64,000 bases of DNA. Source: a virus (lineage: Duplodnaviria; Caudoviricetes). The translations under genes and the position numbers were made by a program. The stretch's first letter is position 1; every line of letters starts with the position of its first letter. The notes under the pieces were generated by a model. It saw only the letters and a program-made list of their open reading frames with translations. It had not been told where the DNA came from and did no database searches. Location: IMG/VR virus record IMGVR_UViG_3300009103_000014, positions 1 through 64,000 of that record; one strand, written 5' to 3'. Shown here one piece after another: positions 14,059-27,467 of the stretch.

Positions 14059-14733
14059 TTACTTTCCTACTAGTTCTAACTTACTTGTTGTAAGTGCCCA
14101 TGGAGTACCATTTGGAACTGTTACTTGAGTATTGCCTTTTTTAACACCAACGTCTGTGTCTTTTGTAACGGTACCAGTAATTTGTTTACCTTTTGCGGAT
14201 GTCCAAGTTACTTTATCACCAGCTTTAAAAGATTTAGCAGGTTGATCAGGTACTTGATTTTGTGCCGCTGACGGATTAACATCTTTATCACCAGCTGGCA
14301 TTTTTTCTGCTACTTCTTTATTAATTGGGCTAGGTAATTTATCTGCTACCTGTTCTAAATATGATTGCATTTCAACAGATGATTTTGGTTTTAATAATAT
14401 AGCTATTACTATTCTTAAAATAGCATTGGCGCCTTTTTTATCAGTTTCAACACCAAACTCTGTTGTAGCTTTTTTTAATGATATTTTAGCTGAACTTGAT
14501 CCATAAAATCTTTCAATCCATGCTTTTAATAAACCATCAGGATTAGTTTTAGCTGTATCTTGATTTTTATCAATTATTTTTTTCCAAGCACCGTAATGAC
14601 GTTTTACCATGTCTATAACGTCACCGATTTGACCGCCTTTACCAGTTAACCCACCGTCTAATTTATAACTTCCTTTTTTATACTTCGGGTCTATAACTGG
14701 AGCTTCTGCTATATCTATCTCGTTAATTCTCAT
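14059..14733 (-). CDS. Putative internal head protein with C-terminal SH3/KOW-like domain
   Basis: MRINEIDIAEA leader; C-terminal FKAGDKVTW...ITGTV beta-barrel pattern. Confidence 0.6.
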   Translation of the reverse strand: MRINEIDIAEAPVIDPKYKKGSYKLDGGLTGKGGQIGDVIDMVKRHYGAWKKIIDKNQDTAKTNPDGLLKAWIERFYGSSSAKISLKKATTEFGVETDKKGANAILRIVIAILLKPKSSVEMQSYLEQVADKLPSPINKEVAEKMPAGDKDVNPSAAQNQVPDQPAKSFKAGDKVTWTSAKGKQITGTVTKDTDVGVKKGNTQVTVPNGTPWALTTSKLELVGK

Positions 14734-22549: not shown

Positions 22550-23760
22550 TAAAATAATTCATCACTATCAATTTCATTTTCTGAAGGTACTTTTGGTGCG
22601 ACTTCAATAACTTTATTACTTTGGAATACATTTCTTTTACTAAACATACCGTACCCAATAGTTATCTCAGAATCAAAATCCCATTCTTTATTATGTAACC
22701 TACTCATTTTATCAGTTATTAATACCTTTGTAGTTTCTATAGGCTTGTCTACCTTTGACCCAAGTCCATCAAAAACATTACTCTTACCACTAATTACTAA
22801 TTCATCTACTGTTCCAAACCTAGCTTTCCACATTCTTGCGATCTTTTTAATCTCTTTAATGTTTTCAGTTGAATGACTTGATAATCCAACGGCAATTTTT
22901 TCAAAACCTAAATCTAAACAACTAAACAATATAGTACTTAGATCGTTGTCCAATTTAACAAACCTATTTGTTAAGATTTTCTTTTCAAGTATATTAAAAT
23001 TATACTTGGTTAAGACATCATTGTCAAGATTTATTGCCAATAATCCGCAACTTTTTATTTGTTGGAGAATTGACTTTTCTTTAATATTTTCATCCCAATA
23101 CTTCTGTAATTCTTCAGGGGCATTATGTAATACTAATGAATCATTATTATGAGTAGCATAAATTGAATACTTTTCTTTATTGTTTAGAATTTCATTTAAC
23201 TCATTAACATAAGGCTCGACGTCATCTGAAAACTTATCAAATTCTTTTTCTTTACACCAGTTATACATCTTTAAAAAGTTATGTTCGTTATTATCTATCT
23301 CCCATCTCTTTTTACTTTGATTCCATTTTGAATTCCCGTCATGTAATAAATTATCATCTCGTAAAAACCCGTTAACTTCTTTAATCCAATCTTGATTATA
23401 TGGGAAATGTAAATAAATCCATTTATCGTTAAAATCAAATCTCTTTGAACGATCTACTGTCCTAACTTCTGTTCTAAAAACAGGATCTAAAACAATCTTT
23501 GTAATATCAACACCAACTTGTCTAAACTGTTTGCGGTATTTACTAGTCAATTTAATAGCAAGATCTCGTTGACGTGATGTCATACCTTCGTTTCGATGTA
23601 TGTAAGAAGACACATTATTAACAAAGTTAACATCATAACGAGCTAACTTAATATACATACCTATACCTCGACCGTGCTTTTTAGGAGTACGTGGCGGGGA
23701 CTCAGACCCCGCCATAACTTCTATACAATACTCTATGTCTTTAGGTAAAAGCATCTTCAT
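22549..23760 (-). CDS. Hypothetical protein with HARP-like segment
   Basis: IYLHFPYNQDWIKEV...SKWNQSKKRWEI; translationally coupled to uvsW. Confidence 0.55.
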   Translation of the reverse strand: MKMLLPKDIEYCIEVMAGSESPPRTPKKHGRGIGMYIKLARYDVNFVNNVSSYIHRNEGMTSRQRDLAIKLTSKYRKQFRQVGVDITKIVLDPVFRTEVRTVDRSKRFDFNDKWIYLHFPYNQDWIKEVNGFLRDDNLLHDGNSKWNQSKKRWEIDNNEHNFLKMYNWCKEKEFDKFSDDVEPYVNELNEILNNKEKYSIYATHNNDSLVLHNAPEELQKYWDENIKEKSILQQIKSCGLLAINLDNDVLTKYNFNILEKKILTNRFVKLDNDLSTILFSCLDLGFEKIAVGLSSHSTENIKEIKKIARMWKARFGTVDELVISGKSNVFDGLGSKVDKPIETTKVLITDKMSRLHNKEWDFDSEITIGYGMFSKRNVFQSNKVIEVAPKVPSENEIDSDELF

Positions 23761-24758
23761 TGATTAATTCCTTTTGTTACTGACTCTTTATTTTTGCCTT
23801 TTCTTACTTCATCATAATAGACAATAGTAGTAGGCACTTCAACTGGTTTGTAATACTCTTTACATTTTTTGTAAAGTTTGATTGAATCTTTATGATTAAT
23901 ATTAGGGGCTCCGGCACCATGTTCTAATTTATATAAAGTAAGATTATCATCATCTGTATAACCTTCACTTTGGTAACAATCCCATATAACATTTAAATTC
24001 TGATAATTTATGTACCTTGTTAAGCCTGTACGATAAATGCCCCATTGAAAAAATACACCTCTATATTTTGATTGTGTTCGACCTTTGTAGTTGTATTTAA
24101 GTTCGTTATTAACCCAAACTTTAAAAAATCCGTCTTTCTTTTTAGTCCATTTTACGTTTATTAAAATATCATTCCATTTGCCTATCATATCTTCTTTAGG
24201 AATAAGCAAAACTTCATCTCTATCACAAAATCCCATAGAACAATATCCTTCGATACCTTTATTACCGATAGTTCTTACTAAAGTATATCCACTCCTGTTT
24301 TCTTTAGTTTGAAATACAGGGTCATAACTATCACCAATATAATCTACTTCTTTAAATTGCCCGTATGTGTTTTGTAAAGGCCATAAATTTATATGACTTT
24401 TTGGAAAATACATTGACCAGGCTAACCAATGTTCACCGCCTGTCATATAATCTTTAGAACCTCTAGAATCGCCTGAATTAAATTCACGTCGTTCTCGATC
24501 TGTTTTACAATCTTGATGGAACCCAGTACCTCTACCGCAATCACCTTGTCGTACTTCGATTCTTAATGCTTCATTACCACTTCGTACAATATCATTAACA
24601 ACTGTTACACCATAATCGCTAGGTTTAAAATTTCCTGCTTTATGTAAAGTATAAAAACCAGAACCAATATCATCTGATATTTTATACTTAGGCCCTTGTC
24701 CAGCATACGACTGAAATGATACAACGACAAATACTAAAGTTAGCAAAATCTTTTTCAT
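23757..24758 (-). CDS. Secreted polysaccharide-lyase-like (jelly-roll) protein
   Basis: Signal peptide; ALRIEVRQGDC, RERREF, GKWNDILINVKW, GFFKVWVN, FQWGIYR and YYDEVR motifs. Confidence 0.8.
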   Translation of the reverse strand: MKKILLTLVFVVVSFQSYAGQGPKYKISDDIGSGFYTLHKAGNFKPSDYGVTVVNDIVRSGNEALRIEVRQGDCGRGTGFHQDCKTDRERREFNSGDSRGSKDYMTGGEHWLAWSMYFPKSHINLWPLQNTYGQFKEVDYIGDSYDPVFQTKENRSGYTLVRTIGNKGIEGYCSMGFCDRDEVLLIPKEDMIGKWNDILINVKWTKKKDGFFKVWVNNELKYNYKGRTQSKYRGVFFQWGIYRTGLTRYINYQNLNVIWDCYQSEGYTDDDNLTLYKLEHGAGAPNINHKDSIKLYKKCKEYYKPVEVPTTIVYYDEVRKGKNKESVTKGINQ

Positions 24759-24778
24759 GATAATTCCTTATCCTCAGT

Positions 24779-24809
24779 TAAAAAATTGGGGAGTATAAAA
24801 CTCCCCAAT
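24779..24809 (-). terminator. Rho-independent terminator of the AAA ATPase gene
   Basis: ATTGGGGAGT...ACTCCCCAAT stem with a U-tract on the minus strand. Confidence 0.85.
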
Positions 24810-24820
24810 CTGCTTGGTTC

Positions 24821-24831
24821 GGAGTAACTAT
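24821..24831. repeat. 11-nt exact complement of the AAA gene's own RBS region (partner at 25875-25885)
   Basis: Plus-strand GGAGTAACTAT here and ATAGTTACTCC at 25875-25885; this arm spans the TAG stop. Confidence 0.85.
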
Positions 24832-25874
24832 GCCGCCCGTTTCATACAGGTCGATACAGCCAAGCTCTGCCACTTTTCGGAAATCTTCTTAAGGTCACCA
24901 ACTTTAAGAGCTGTCCTCAAACTCATTTCACGAAGTCTGTTTCGGTTCTCATATATAAAAGCAAGAATTTCTTCTTCGTCTTCTTTAGTAAAACCGTAAC
25001 CTTGAAACAAATCACCTTTATCAGCAATTTGTTTAATTCTTAAAAACTTATCTCTCATAGTATCAAGAGTAAGATCTAAATAGTGACATCTTGACATAAG
25101 TGCCTCTAGGTGATCTTTAAGTTTCTTAGATTTAACGTGTTCAAATTTAATGTTGGTAACAAAACAAGCTGAACCTTTAAATTCAAATTCGTTTGGTATA
25201 CCTTCTGCTCTAAGTTTTGAACTATCCGCACTCCACATTAACCTACGTCTCTTACCACTATCTAAAGCGGCCTTTAAAATGTTTAATGCCAAGTCATCTA
25301 GTAAAACTGAATCACAGTCATCAAAAACGATAACATTTCCTGAATCACTGAACTCATAAAGTTTAGCATAAAGTCCTAGTGCCGTCATCGCACCTTTAAC
25401 AACTTCATACTTCCTTTTACCGCCACCGATATCATCAAATAGGCTATGCTCATCTAATGTTTGTTCAACACCGTATGATTTACCAACCCCTGGAGGTCCT
25501 GTAACAATCAAAGCACGGATGTCGCCATTTTTTAGACTGGCCGCCATCTCGTTTAAAATTTCAAAACGTTCAGTAATTTCTTTAATACGTTTTTCATCGG
25601 AAACTTGAGAACTAAACTCGCCTTCTTTCTGGCCTTCGTTCATTCCTAATGTTTCACATTGTTTTAAATAATCCGCTTCATCTTCAACGAAGCTAAACCC
25701 TGTTGGTTTAACAGTAACCCTAATTTTATTAAAATCAGGACCGAACACTTTTGAACCATCAACAGTAAGAAACATTCCTTTCTTACCGGATGTCATGTTC
25801 TTGATGAGTGGGAAAATGATGTTCTCTACAGGCTTATTTCTGTAAGAACCTTTCTTAATTAACACATATGACAT
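24828..25874 (-). CDS. AAA+ family ATPase
   Basis: GPPGVGKS Walker A, IVFDDCD Walker B, ALMSR arginine finger. Start re-called to MSYVL (GGAG, 7-nt spacer). Confidence 0.9.
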   Translation of the reverse strand: MSYVLIKKGSYRNKPVENIIFPLIKNMTSGKKGMFLTVDGSKVFGPDFNKIRVTVKPTGFSFVEDEADYLKQCETLGMNEGQKEGEFSSQVSDEKRIKEITERFEILNEMAASLKNGDIRALIVTGPPGVGKSYGVEQTLDEHSLFDDIGGGKRKYEVVKGAMTALGLYAKLYEFSDSGNVIVFDDCDSVLLDDLALNILKAALDSGKRRRLMWSADSSKLRAEGIPNEFEFKGSACFVTNIKFEHVKSKKLKDHLEALMSRCHYLDLTLDTMRDKFLRIKQIADKGDLFQGYGFTKEDEEEILAFIYENRNRLREMSLRTALKVGDLKKISEKWQSLAVSTCMKRAA

Positions 25875-25924
25875 ATAGTTACTCCTTTTCATTGTCTATT
25901 GGTTTTTCTAACTTTACATATACT

Positions 25925-25953
25925 ATTGTACAGTCATTCGGCCCATTTGTCAA
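25925..25953 (-). promoter_or_regulatory. Sigma70-type promoter TTGACA-N17-TACAAT, with the -35 enclosed by an inverted repeat
   Basis: IR arms GTCATTCGG (25933-25941) and CCGAAATGAC (25954-25963). Confidence 0.85.
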
Positions 25954-25979
25954 CCGAAATGACGTCTTTTTTTCGCTTG

Positions 25980-25992
25980 TAAGTCGTTGATT
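25980..25992 (-). promoter_or_regulatory. IHF-consensus site
   Basis: Minus-strand AATCAACGACTTA matches WATCAANNNNTTR. Confidence 0.55.
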
Positions 25993-25995
25993 TTA

Positions 25996-26589
25996 TTAGG
26001 TTTTTAAATTATTTTCCTGTTTTAACCACTTTTGGAATTGATTTTGGGCATTTTGGAGTGATTTTACCCAGTCAAAATCAGCATTTTCGTCGGCATTATC
26101 AGAAATATACTTGATACAACGAAACTTTATACCCAATTTAGCACAGACAGTTGCCATGGCATAAGCCTCCATATCTACTATATCTACTTTTGCTTCGTCA
26201 AACCATGGGTCTTTTGTGTTTACAAAACTATCACCTGTCCCTAGTGTAATATTAGTGCCTGAATTAAGCATTATAGCATGAGTTACACCGCCTTGATACG
26301 GTGTTTGGCCTCGTGGTGCTAATGGTGTTGCTACCATATCTCGCTGTAAAATAGTATCTACTTCTACTAACCCAGTATGCTTACCATTTACAGAACCAAC
26401 TGTTCCAAAATTAATAACTTCAGTAATTTTACCATAGCTCAGACTGTGATTATCTTGAATAATTCTTCTTGTTAAGTTAAATGTGGCATTTATTTTACCT
26501 ACACCTGTATATACGATGCCAGATATCTCTGGTGGTTTATTTGCTAATGGAAATTCTTCTTCCAAAGCTACACTTATTAATGTTCCCAA
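25996..26589 (-). CDS. mtnN: MTA/SAH nucleosidase
   Basis: ALEEE, TGVGKINA, INFGTVG, GTGDSF, VDMEAYA, KYISDNAD. Start re-called to the TTG after AGGAG. Confidence 0.88.
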   Translation of the reverse strand: MGTLISVALEEEFPLANKPPEISGIVYTGVGKINATFNLTRRIIQDNHSLSYGKITEVINFGTVGSVNGKHTGLVEVDTILQRDMVATPLAPRGQTPYQGGVTHAIMLNSGTNITLGTGDSFVNTKDPWFDEAKVDIVDMEAYAMATVCAKLGIKFRCIKYISDNADENADFDWVKSLQNAQNQFQKWLKQENNLKT

Positions 26590-26616
26590 TGTACTTCTCC
26601 TATAAATAACTTTGTT

Positions 26617-26645
26617 ATTGTAACACAGACTAGTAAGTATGTCAA
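26617..26645 (-). promoter_or_regulatory. Sigma70-type promoter TTGACA-N17-TACAAT
   Basis: Direct match; supports the shorter start of the nucleosidase. Confidence 0.85.
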
Positions 26646-26699
26646 GTTTATCCTTCATAATAAAATAAACCAATAAATATCATAACTAAAGGAGACTCA

Positions 26700-27467
26700 A
26701 TGGAAATTGATGATAAAATTATTCCTCTGCCAATTGACTTTGGCATTAAGCCCTTAGACAATCAACAAACATATGATTGGATTAGAGATAACAAACACCC
26801 TCAAGGAAATCATTTTGGTTGTGCTTTACCATGGTTAATGTTAGACTTTCCTGAATGGCCTCATAAAGAAATGGCCGAAGAAGCTAAAAAAATAGATGAA
26901 GCTGGATTGATACCAGATTACAATAGTGGAAGTAATATAGGCTGGTCAGCTGTAGCACTTTATGGGTTAAGTTCCGACTCTACATTACCTCCAGAGGAAT
27001 ATGGTTACAGCAATTACCAAGAAGCTAGAGCCGCCGGAGCATTAAACTGGACTGAGATTGCGGACCATTGTCCAATTACTACAAAATTTTTCAAAGACGA
27101 CTTTCATTACAAACGTTATAACAGAATTAGATTTATGAAAGTAGCACCAGGTGGAATTATACGTTGGCATAACGATGTCCCTGACAACGAAGGCCCTACA
27201 TTTGATTTAGGCGTTGTTAATATTAGTTTAACTAATCCAGAAGGTTGTTATTTTCATATGGGACAATGGGGTAATATTCCTGTAACTGATGGTTGTATGT
27301 GGTTGTTTGGTAACAATCATTATCATATGGTTATTAATACAAGTAAAGAACCTAGATATCATATGATAGCTAGTGGAACACCAGACGAAAAATTCTGGGC
27401 TGATATAACAGCAAATAGTTTTCGTCGACAATGGTGGGGTGAATTTGTAGAGGACGAAAATGATTAG
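26700..27467 (+). CDS. 2OG-Fe(II) oxygenase, Asp/Asn beta-hydroxylase-like
   Basis: RIRFMKVAPGGIIRWHND (HxD), NNHYHMVIN, PRYHMI. TAAATA at 26674-26679 and AAGGAG RBS. Confidence 0.85.
   Translation: MEIDDKIIPLPIDFGIKPLDNQQTYDWIRDNKHPQGNHFGCALPWLMLDFPEWPHKEMAEEAKKIDEAGLIPDYNSGSNIGWSAVALYGLSSDSTLPPEEYGYSNYQEARAAGALNWTEIADHCPITTKFFKDDFHYKRYNRIRFMKVAPGGIIRWHNDVPDNEGPTFDLGVVNISLTNPEGCYFHMGQWGNIPVTDGCMWLFGNNHYHMVINTSKEPRYHMIASGTPDEKFWADITANSFRRQWWGEFVEDEND

Follow-up and report, generated by a model that had tools for sequence, protein, structure and literature searches.

IMG/VR virus record IMGVR_UViG_3300009103_000014 is an 80,403-nucleotide (nt) contig of 33% G+C, the first 64 kb of which form the stretch analysed here (the window). 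Its minus strand carries a gene for a 348-residue phage AAA-type ATPase, and the two ends of the predicted mRNA of this gene hold 11-nt sequences, hereafter the arms, that are exact reverse complements of each other. The 5' arm, GGAGTAACTAT (25885-25875), comprises the Shine-Dalgarno (SD) sequence and its spacer and lies directly 5' of the ATG start codon (25874-25872), while the 3' arm, ATAGTTACTCC (24831-24821), spans the TAG stop codon (24830-24828) at a distance of 1043 nt. The mRNA's 5' end reads ...GAAAAGGAGUAACUAU-AUG, within which GGAGUAACUAU is the 5' arm, and the 3' end reads ...GGC-AUAGUUACUCC, with the UAG stop inside the arm. All positions form Watson-Crick pairs (11/11), as a first-pass annotation made from the sequence alone had stated. 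Sequence comparison shows the pairing retained in a broad family of aquatic phages, although the paired sequences themselves have changed, and the end of the message is probably a real, built-in brake on its translation.

The gene has the sigma-70-type promoter of its own that the annotation had described, and the proposed terminator, a hairpin followed by a T-run about 11 nt past the 3' arm, is also found (Table 1). The two halves of the terminator stem (24809-24800 and 24794-24785) pair in both local and full-length folds; a consensus terminator scan of the window did not include the 24809-24785 hairpin among its calls. The description of the gene as monocistronic holds only in part: the next open reading frame (ORF) starts at 24758, about 20 nt past the T-run, and, as the scan lists no promoter-like site on the minus strand from 25925 to 24758, probably depends on read-through. 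An in-frame ATG at 25892, chosen as the start in the ORF list, was rejected because it lacks an SD and the homologues align from 25874.

Table 1. Features of the ATPase transcription unit in the window, arm pairs of related loci (5' arm/3' arm; loci are labelled L) and sites of a separate hairpin motif.
Feature	Position or loci	Strand	Details
Sigma-70-type promoter	25925..25953	-	-35 TTGACA 25953-25948, 17-nt spacer, -10 TACAAT 25930-25925; 11/12 consensus matches
5' untranslated region (UTR), about 44 nt, A-rich	25875..25918	-	start near 25918 placed from the -10 position; predicted largely unpaired when nascent
5' arm GGAGUAACUAU	25875..25885	-	SD core and entire spacer up to the AUG
Coding sequence (CDS), 348 aa plus stop	24828..25874	-	phage AAA-type ATPase, T4 NrdC.10 homologue; from translation and profile matches
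3' arm AUAGUUACUCC (anti-SD)	24821..24831	-	last base of the final Ala codon, UAG stop, 7 nt of 3' UTR
Intrinsic-terminator-like hairpin and T-run	24780..24809	-	10-bp stem, 5-nt loop, 10/10 complementary; 11 nt past the 3' arm
Next ORF, 333 aa, no family found	23757..24758	-	starts about 20 nt past the T-run; own GAGGA/AAGGA SD
Arm pair GGAGTAACTAT/ATAGTTACTCC	window clade (A), 7 loci		
Arm pair TAGGGAGTAAT/ATTACTCCCTA	L148		
Arm pair ATAGAGAGGAT/ATCCTCTCTAT	L155		
Arm pair AGCTAGGAG/CTCCTAGCT	L099		shorter CTAGGAG/CTCCTAG in sister L010
Arm pair AACGGAGTA/TACTCCGTT	L063 group, 9 loci		up to 12 nt in some, reaching into the TGA stop
Arm pair AGGAGCTA/TAGCTCCT	42-locus group		
Arm pair TAGGAGTT/AACTCCTA	L125		
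Arm pair GAGGGTAA/TTACCCTC	L143		
Arm pair AGGAGCGA/TCGCTCCT	L156		
Arm pair GGAGCAA/TTGCTCC	L113		
Arm pair GAAAGGG/CCCTTTC	L123		
Arm pair GAGGGCA/TGCCCTC	L166		
GGAGAGAGA opposite CU-rich hairpin loop	class B, 14 loci		
15-nt hairpin motif	L084 (T4) 14307-14321	-	nrdC.10/nrdC.9 spacer
15-nt hairpin motif	L006 2611-2625; L009 2595-2609		
15-nt hairpin motif	L087 2599-2613; L094 2106-2120; L165 2611-2625		

The match stands alone in its genome. For each of the 129 ORFs of at least 70 residues on the 80.4-kb contig, the region from -22 to +3 at the start was compared with the region from 10 nt before to 73 nt after the stop, and the ATPase gene was the only ORF to show a complement of at least 10 nt; the runners-up were two AT-rich 9-nt matches, both outside any SD. 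The arm is not the generic ribosome-binding site (RBS) of this phage, since the 11-mer occurs with at most one mismatch only at the two arms in the window. Use of the device throughout the contig was likewise rejected, as a search of the 2.5 kb downstream of 68 SD-bearing ORFs gave 9 hits of at least 9 nt against 8 in the upstream control, with no trend; among the downstream hits the ATPase pair was the longest and the sole one located at the gene's own stop. When 25-nt and 83-nt segments placed at random in this genome, about 1 kb apart, were compared, complements of at least 11 nt appeared in 29 of 40,000 trials, some of which hit this very pair. Considered by itself, the match is out of the ordinary without being compelling, given that a window has about a hundred genes; it is the relatives that supply the decisive evidence.

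Homologous loci were taken from the best 80 of 589 viral-contig loci, the best 80 of 554 metagenome loci, 7 genome contigs and 8 cultured phages. Of the 168 matched loci 146 were usable, 22 being dropped for missing flanks, split matches or lack of a stop, and single-linkage on the 5' and 3' segments yielded 45 clusters, each represented by the member most similar to the query. Covarying complementarity in homologues had been named beforehand as the test of the proposed pairing, and it was found: the longest complement between a representative's own 5' and 3' segments averaged 6.58 nt, compared with 5.34 nt for permuted pairs (standard deviation 0.15, maximum 6.07; z = 8.1), and the observed mean was reached in 0 of 100,000 permutations. 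Duplex energies followed the same pattern (-12.88 kcal/mol for own pairs, -10.64 kcal/mol when permuted; z = -6.0), while a control for direct, same-sense repeats was without such an excess (5.44 vs 5.23). Complements of at least 7 nt to the SD segment (-18 to -2) occurred at 4.33 per kb within about 100 nt past the stop, as against 0.31 per kb in the CDS, 0.43 per kb upstream and 0.74 per kb further downstream; the direct-match control was flat along the locus at 0.69-1.38 per kb. Counted by cluster, 17 of the 45 have a complement of at least 7 nt within about 100 nt of the stop (at least 8 nt in 10 clusters), compared with 33 of 856 control windows of equal size from the same loci (3.9%; binomial 3.6e-13). 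Judged by these sequence comparisons, the excess holds for own pairs but not for permuted ones, for complements but not for direct matches, and specifically at the transcription unit's 3' end.

SD flanks differ among relatives whose proteins are 45-93% identical, each flank being matched by a sequence at its own 3' end (Table 1). The helices are 7-12 bp long, and 5' arm and SD overlap in most of the clusters with arms. In about 11 clusters the 3' arm starts no more than roughly 12 nt from the stop, and in roughly half of the arm-bearing clusters, including the largest groups, it lies 20-60 nt beyond the stop. Bulged helices are found in several clusters, e.g. L039, L107, L127 and L016. The window's 3' arm is kept in six clade-A relatives, and in one of these (L005) an A-to-G change in the arm leaves U-G in place of a U-A pair. 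On a quick maximum-likelihood tree of a 43-row aquatic clade with two T4-like outgroup rows, arm-bearing rows are scattered through the whole aquatic clade and the two outgroup rows have no arms; the sister clade of the window is class B (98% support in the Shimodaira-Hasegawa-like approximate likelihood ratio test, SH-aLRT), whose arms are unrelated to those of the window. In the relatives compared (classes A, E and F), the gene has a TTGAC-17-TATAAT promoter ahead of a leader of 30-45 nt. The cultured jumbo phage PA5oct of Pseudomonas (L082), whose homologue is EST35_0359, carries an 8-nt pair, AGTAGCAT/ATGCTACT (around 955; 2109-2145), located 23 nt past the stop and extendable by two G-U pairs; in addition, its 3' arm pairs locally with a copy of the 5' sequence to give a small hairpin.

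The 3' arm keeps to the end of the transcription unit. Within the 42-locus group, 38 loci have TAGCTCC downstream of the gene, as a rule in a single copy per locus of about 4 kb, and in most of these loci GGAGCTA occurs only at the ATPase RBS and is absent from the next gene. Eight class-F loci (L101, L022, L025, L049, L061, L117, L118 and L030) have one to several small ORFs after the ATPase gene, and there the module of hairpin, TAGCTCCTG, hairpin and terminator persists, displaced to +240 to +1217 from the stop, where the enlarged unit ends. An alignment of 34 distinct modules revealed covariation in the flanking hairpin and the terminator, with double changes in 11 of 12 predicted pairs; the alignment was anchored on TAGCTCC, so that the invariance of those seven columns is by construction. 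Promoter/stem-loop cassettes in T4-type phages are known as sites of modular gene shuffling, and such shuffling would fit the insertion of small ORFs after the ATPase gene in some loci. In most of the 34 aligned loci (e.g. L046 2484-2611) the T-run of the terminator passes straight into the -35 box of the next promoter (TTTTTTTGAC). Three loci (L105, L027 and L038) carry a second TAGCTCC about 650 nt upstream of the ATPase start, which may mark the end of another unit with the same device.

The folding predictions concern the accessibility of both arms. In local folds the 3' arm has a mean probability of being unpaired, P(unpaired), of 0.71 compared with 0.40 for the rest of the 3' region, and it is more unpaired than its surroundings in 16 of 17 clusters (Wilcoxon 3e-5). 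Many clusters have the arm in the apical loop of a hairpin between stop and terminator, and one has it in the loop of the terminator itself; the window's 3' arm is not within a stable hairpin. A fold of the whole transcript, as the annotation had suggested, was made for 1140 nt (25918-24779, the start being placed from the -10 box). The 11-bp helix is present in the minimum free energy (MFE) structure (-312.1 kcal/mol); eight of its pairs have probabilities of 0.997-0.9995, and the three closest to the AUG have 0.90, 0.73 and 0.47. In prefixes of 80-1086 nt the 5' arm has a P(unpaired) of 0.50-0.69, which falls to 0.07-0.08 at 1100 and 1140 nt, and no metastable hairpin masking the SD is predicted in any of the prefix folds. 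All six other arm-bearing representatives that were folded lose SD accessibility once the 3' end is added (0.32 to 0.03, 0.50 to 0.39, 0.42 to 0.11, 0.54 to 0.24, 0.32 to 0.18 and 0.49 to 0.23). In 16 of the 45 representatives, no fewer than 5 of the 13 bases of the SD region are paired to the final ~100 nt in the MFE structure. Folding thus predicts an RBS that is open in nascent RNA and closed after the 3' arm has been transcribed, in agreement with the annotation's suggestion that translation would occur mainly on nascent mRNA.

We propose a cis-acting 5'-3' long-distance interaction that occludes the RBS, leaves translation mainly to nascent mRNA and limits the dose of the ATPase, a reading to which we assign a probability of about 0.6. 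The unit would consist, in order, of a strong early-type promoter, a short A-rich 5' UTR, the AAA-ATPase gene, the anti-SD arm and the terminator. The anti-SD arm would be transcribed last; until then the RBS would stay open and ribosomes could load on the growing mRNA. In the finished transcript the 3' arm would pair in cis with the SD region about 1 kb upstream and hide the RBS, leaving the completed mRNA largely closed to ribosomes, and each transcript would give a short, dose-limited pulse of ATPase. The paired mRNA may also differ in stability. Translation of the nascent message is favoured because the leader is predicted to be open during synthesis, with no metastable SD-masking hairpin. 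We infer that the helix forms in vivo and that its purpose would be to limit the dose or the timing of the ATPase. It would repress initiation, given that sequestration of an SD lowers initiation and that long-range anti-SD effects have been measured in Bacillus subtilis (PMC12697547).

A number of points weigh against this proposal. Its support is computational throughout, and the starts of the homologues were assigned by similarity and SD score, a heuristic of our own. There is no perfect complement of at least 7 nt within about 100 nt of the stop in 28 of the 45 clusters, some of which have 6-nt, bulged or more distal matches and others none at all; T4 has no arm pair (duplex -4.6 kcal/mol), nor do 6 of the 7 other cultured phages sampled. 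The MFE structures of 29 of the 45 representatives are without pairing between SD and 3' end, and the six further representatives that lose SD accessibility had been picked for having arms. Folds of 1.1-kb RNAs by MFE and partition function are approximate, taking no account of ribosomes, kinetics or proteins. Between the sense and antisense strands the duplex energies show no difference (-12.88 against -13.57; Wilcoxon p = 0.29), so that G-U asymmetry is no proof of an RNA-level constraint on the mRNA strand. RNA-library contigs from four sequencing runs are short and cover parts of the gene or of that of a close relative; they give no ends, strand or level, and DNA carry-over is possible. 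One of them extends to 25941, 23 nt upstream of the predicted start, for which reason the 5' end at 25918 stays a placement from the promoter, and another, from a relative, bridges the terminator.

The same sequences could also act in trans, as a small RNA (sRNA) derived from the 3' UTR, with the anti-SD in a hairpin ahead of the terminator, that binds the RBS of other copies of its parent mRNA and provides negative feedback at the level of the transcript. The frequent position of the anti-SD in an apical loop just upstream of the terminator speaks for this, being a display seen in many antisense RNAs and sRNAs, and the covariation fits action in cis and in trans alike. However, the window scan has no minus-strand promoter-like site in the 3' part of the gene, so release of the sRNA would need processing; the window's own arm overlaps the stop codon outside any stable hairpin, and intramolecular pairing would be kinetically favoured. 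We regard action in trans as rather unlikely.

A somewhat smaller chance is given to a stored, inert message of the hok/aapA type, in which the paired mRNA would be stable and silent until its 3' end is trimmed, delaying synthesis from an early promoter. The layout matches that of type I toxin mRNAs, in which 3'-end processing activates translation, according to the part of the source available (PMC6733600). Those toxin systems add metastable 5' hairpins, however, whereas here the SD is predicted to be 50-69% unpaired during synthesis; the terminator hairpin 3' of the arm would be expected to hinder exonucleolytic trimming, and the product is a 348-residue ATPase rather than a small toxin.

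The annotation had also considered that ribosomes re-expose the RBS. In such a closed loop, terminating ribosomes would unzip the helix and free the adjacent RBS, with translated mRNAs staying on and idle ones becoming locked. The arm of the window clade overlaps the stop, and those arms that begin within roughly 12 nt of it (about 11 clusters) lie within the reach of a terminating ribosome, as known from ribosome footprints. The 20-60-nt distance in the largest groups and the modules displaced by inserted ORFs indicate that stop overlap is not required for conservation, and the closed loop is very improbable as the common mechanism. Re-exposure could be an addition where the arm overlaps the stop. 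In the lineages with an anti-SD on or adjoining the stop, the window clade and the ACGGAGTA class, it could form a translation-coupled latch, whose helix is melted by terminating ribosomes, with release of an RBS beside the stop, and which locks an empty message permanently, an improbable idea, though less so than the general form. If true, a ribosome-laden message would keep re-initiating in a bacterial closed loop, and each mRNA would carry an on/off memory.

Least credible of all is that no mRNA structure is involved and that the matches reflect chance, inverted repeats of mobile cassettes, homogenised promoter/terminator cassettes or an anti-SD for the next gene in read-through RNA: for all that the duplex energies are alike on both strands, the look-elsewhere chance of one 11-mer amounts to a few percent for a window, gene units are bounded by terminator/promoter cassettes that could recombine like those of T4, and RBS-occluding hairpins of T4 are a precedent for an anti-SD aimed at the next gene, the permutation and position tests exclude chance for the family. 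Three points make the case for the mRNA level: overlap of the 5' arm with the SD in most clusters that have arms, the location of both arms within the transcription unit, and a 3' arm that follows the end of the unit. The window's 3' arm, as read from the sequence, does not match the RBS of the next gene, and complements are not enriched upstream; together with arm motifs that in most loci of the 42-locus group occur once each, flanking the ATPase gene, and with a module at the unit's end, this argues against both a downstream-gene anti-SD and homogenised intergenic cassettes.

Two further ideas about the 3' arm in the window were rejected. Its plus strand reads as an SD followed by ATG, yet the frame is only about 20 codons long and no start codon occurs at the corresponding opposite-strand position in the other arm classes. 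A role for TAG as a rare stop also fails, as TAG is used by 22 of the 92 ORFs of at least 100 residues in this genome; its use at the 3' arm is therefore uninformative. Around the promoter, an imperfect inverted repeat, GTCATTTCGG ... CCGAATGAC (25933-25963, minus strand), brackets the -35 box and spacer and is not evident in the relatives whose upstream regions were compared. A plus-strand promoter-like site at 25708-25735 (TTAACA-16-TAAAAT, 10/12) is oriented antisense to the ATPase mRNA and faces its 5' end and RBS; it is probably fortuitous, because its -10 box is altered in 3 of 5 clade-A relatives. A scan of 23500-27000 in the window with the Rfam covariance models gave no match at E <= 1, and no match was obtained at the element in six related loci. 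In L155, a metagenome relative, positions 342-547 upstream of the ATPase gene match the manA RNA (RF01745) with 40.8 bits and E 1.5e-7, under the gathering score of 55.2.

The ATPase matches phrog_1250, a family of unknown function, over residues 2-345 (E 9e-80), and aligns with T4 NrdC.10 with 111 of 313 residues identical. Its Pfam match, to AAA_16, is weak and below the cut-off; no NCBIfam family was matched, a sequence search of the PDB gave nothing below E 0.3, and in the Atlas search the protein resembles viral AAA-type ATPase clusters only. An alignment of 41 sequences contains an invariant G-PPG-GKS Walker A block and a VFDDCD block. On these sequence grounds the protein is a member of the T4 NrdC.10-type phage AAA family, phrog_1250. 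Homologues were found by tblastn in 1307 cultured-phage records, all at <60% identity and mostly in T4-like phages, and many of these records name the homologue 'thioredoxin', a label that probably stems merely from the nrdC.N gene names. A nucleotide search of cultured phages with the 1351-nt region returned no match, and the sequencing runs that contain DNA of this stretch carry marine or seawater metagenome labels. Upstream of the ATPase gene, the minus-strand ORF at 25996-26673 is nucleosidase-like (best E 8e-31, with MTA/SAH nucleosidase models among the matches, which are below cut-offs) and looks like a phage-borne nucleoside-salvage gene. Just 3' of the NrdC.10-type gene, T4 and five marine class-B loci have in common a 15-nt motif that occupies loop and stem of a hairpin, GGCAGT...ACTGCC (Table 1); the adjacent proteins are only about 35% identical, and by sequence comparison the motif is a conserved element.

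Natural long-range interactions that sequester an RBS are few in bacterial-type mRNAs, and here a pairing over about 1 kb accompanies a single conserved phage gene in many aquatic phages that are otherwise divergent. The many independent arm variants provide a kind of comparative support usually confined to structured RNAs, and they represent natural 'compensatory mutants' for the effects of distance, hairpin display and stop overlap on long-range repression. If the proposed cis interaction is true, a virus would set the dose of a protein by completion of its transcript, without a regulator protein. It would also mark the NrdC.10-type ATPase as a protein whose amount or timing matters, and PA5oct with its 8-nt version may serve as a laboratory model.

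The annotation knew of no named system of this kind in phages, and a non-exhaustive literature search, with subscription journals mostly outside it, likewise found no description of such an element there. In phages, RBS sequestration governed by the portion of the RNA made or present has precedents in the MS2 maturation gene, whose translation is restricted to nascent RNA, and in the RBS-occluding hairpins of T4 read-through transcripts. In those cases the partner of the RBS lies upstream or nearby, within tens of nt, whereas for the phage ATPase it is the far 3' end of the message. The icaR mRNA of Staphylococcus aureus, in the available part of the report, has a pyrimidine-rich anti-SD past its coding region that pairs with its own SD and impedes initiation; the 3' UTR is long (icaR was chosen among 3' UTRs of >100 nt) and the duplex is an RNase III substrate (PMC3868564). 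As far as that account extends, the phage element is alike in placing 3' of the coding region an anti-SD complementary to its own SD, both in the window and as an excess over the 45 clusters. It is unlike icaR, a chromosomal repressor gene, in belonging to a phage gene with a 3' UTR of about 50 nt in the window and an arm that can overlap the stop, and in having helices that are probably too short for RNase III. The icaR work is experimental, whereas support for the phage element is comparative, with many covarying variants. hbs is reportedly counted among the known mRNAs of this kind.

The hok and aapA mRNAs are a few hundred nt long. In hok (plasmid R1) and aapA (Helicobacter pylori), as the accessible part of the source describes them, a far-3' anti-SD, CU-rich and conserved by covariation, sequesters the SD; an antisense RNA is the partner, metastable hairpins block co-transcriptional translation and 3' trimming activates the mRNA (PMC6733600). 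Set against that description, the phage mRNA likewise has a 5'-3' pairing over the SD kept through covariation, but it is about 1.1 kb long and encodes an ATPase instead of a small toxic peptide. No conserved antisense promoter was found here by the promoter scan and in the clade-A relatives, and the SD is predicted to be largely accessible in nascent prefixes where hok and aapA have metastable 5' hairpins. In B. subtilis reporters, pairing of the RBS with anti-SD-like sequences located hundreds of nt downstream inhibits initiation and promotes decay; the substitutions were synthetic, natural genes are depleted of such sequences, and the portion of the paper available lists only three earlier reports of natural long-range cases (Gill et al. 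2025 preprint; PMC12697547). These effects, as given there, lend mechanistic plausibility to RBS sequestration in the phage mRNA, whose anti-SD is by comparison natural and positively conserved at the 3' end, with a coding region poor in matches. 5'-3' sequestration of the SD as such is thus already known from icaR, hok and aapA, to the extent that those sources were available; the present case differs from them in the phage host, the 348-residue ATPase product, the span of about 1 kb and the frequent display in a hairpin loop, together with persistence across inserted ORFs and an unusually broad comparative support.

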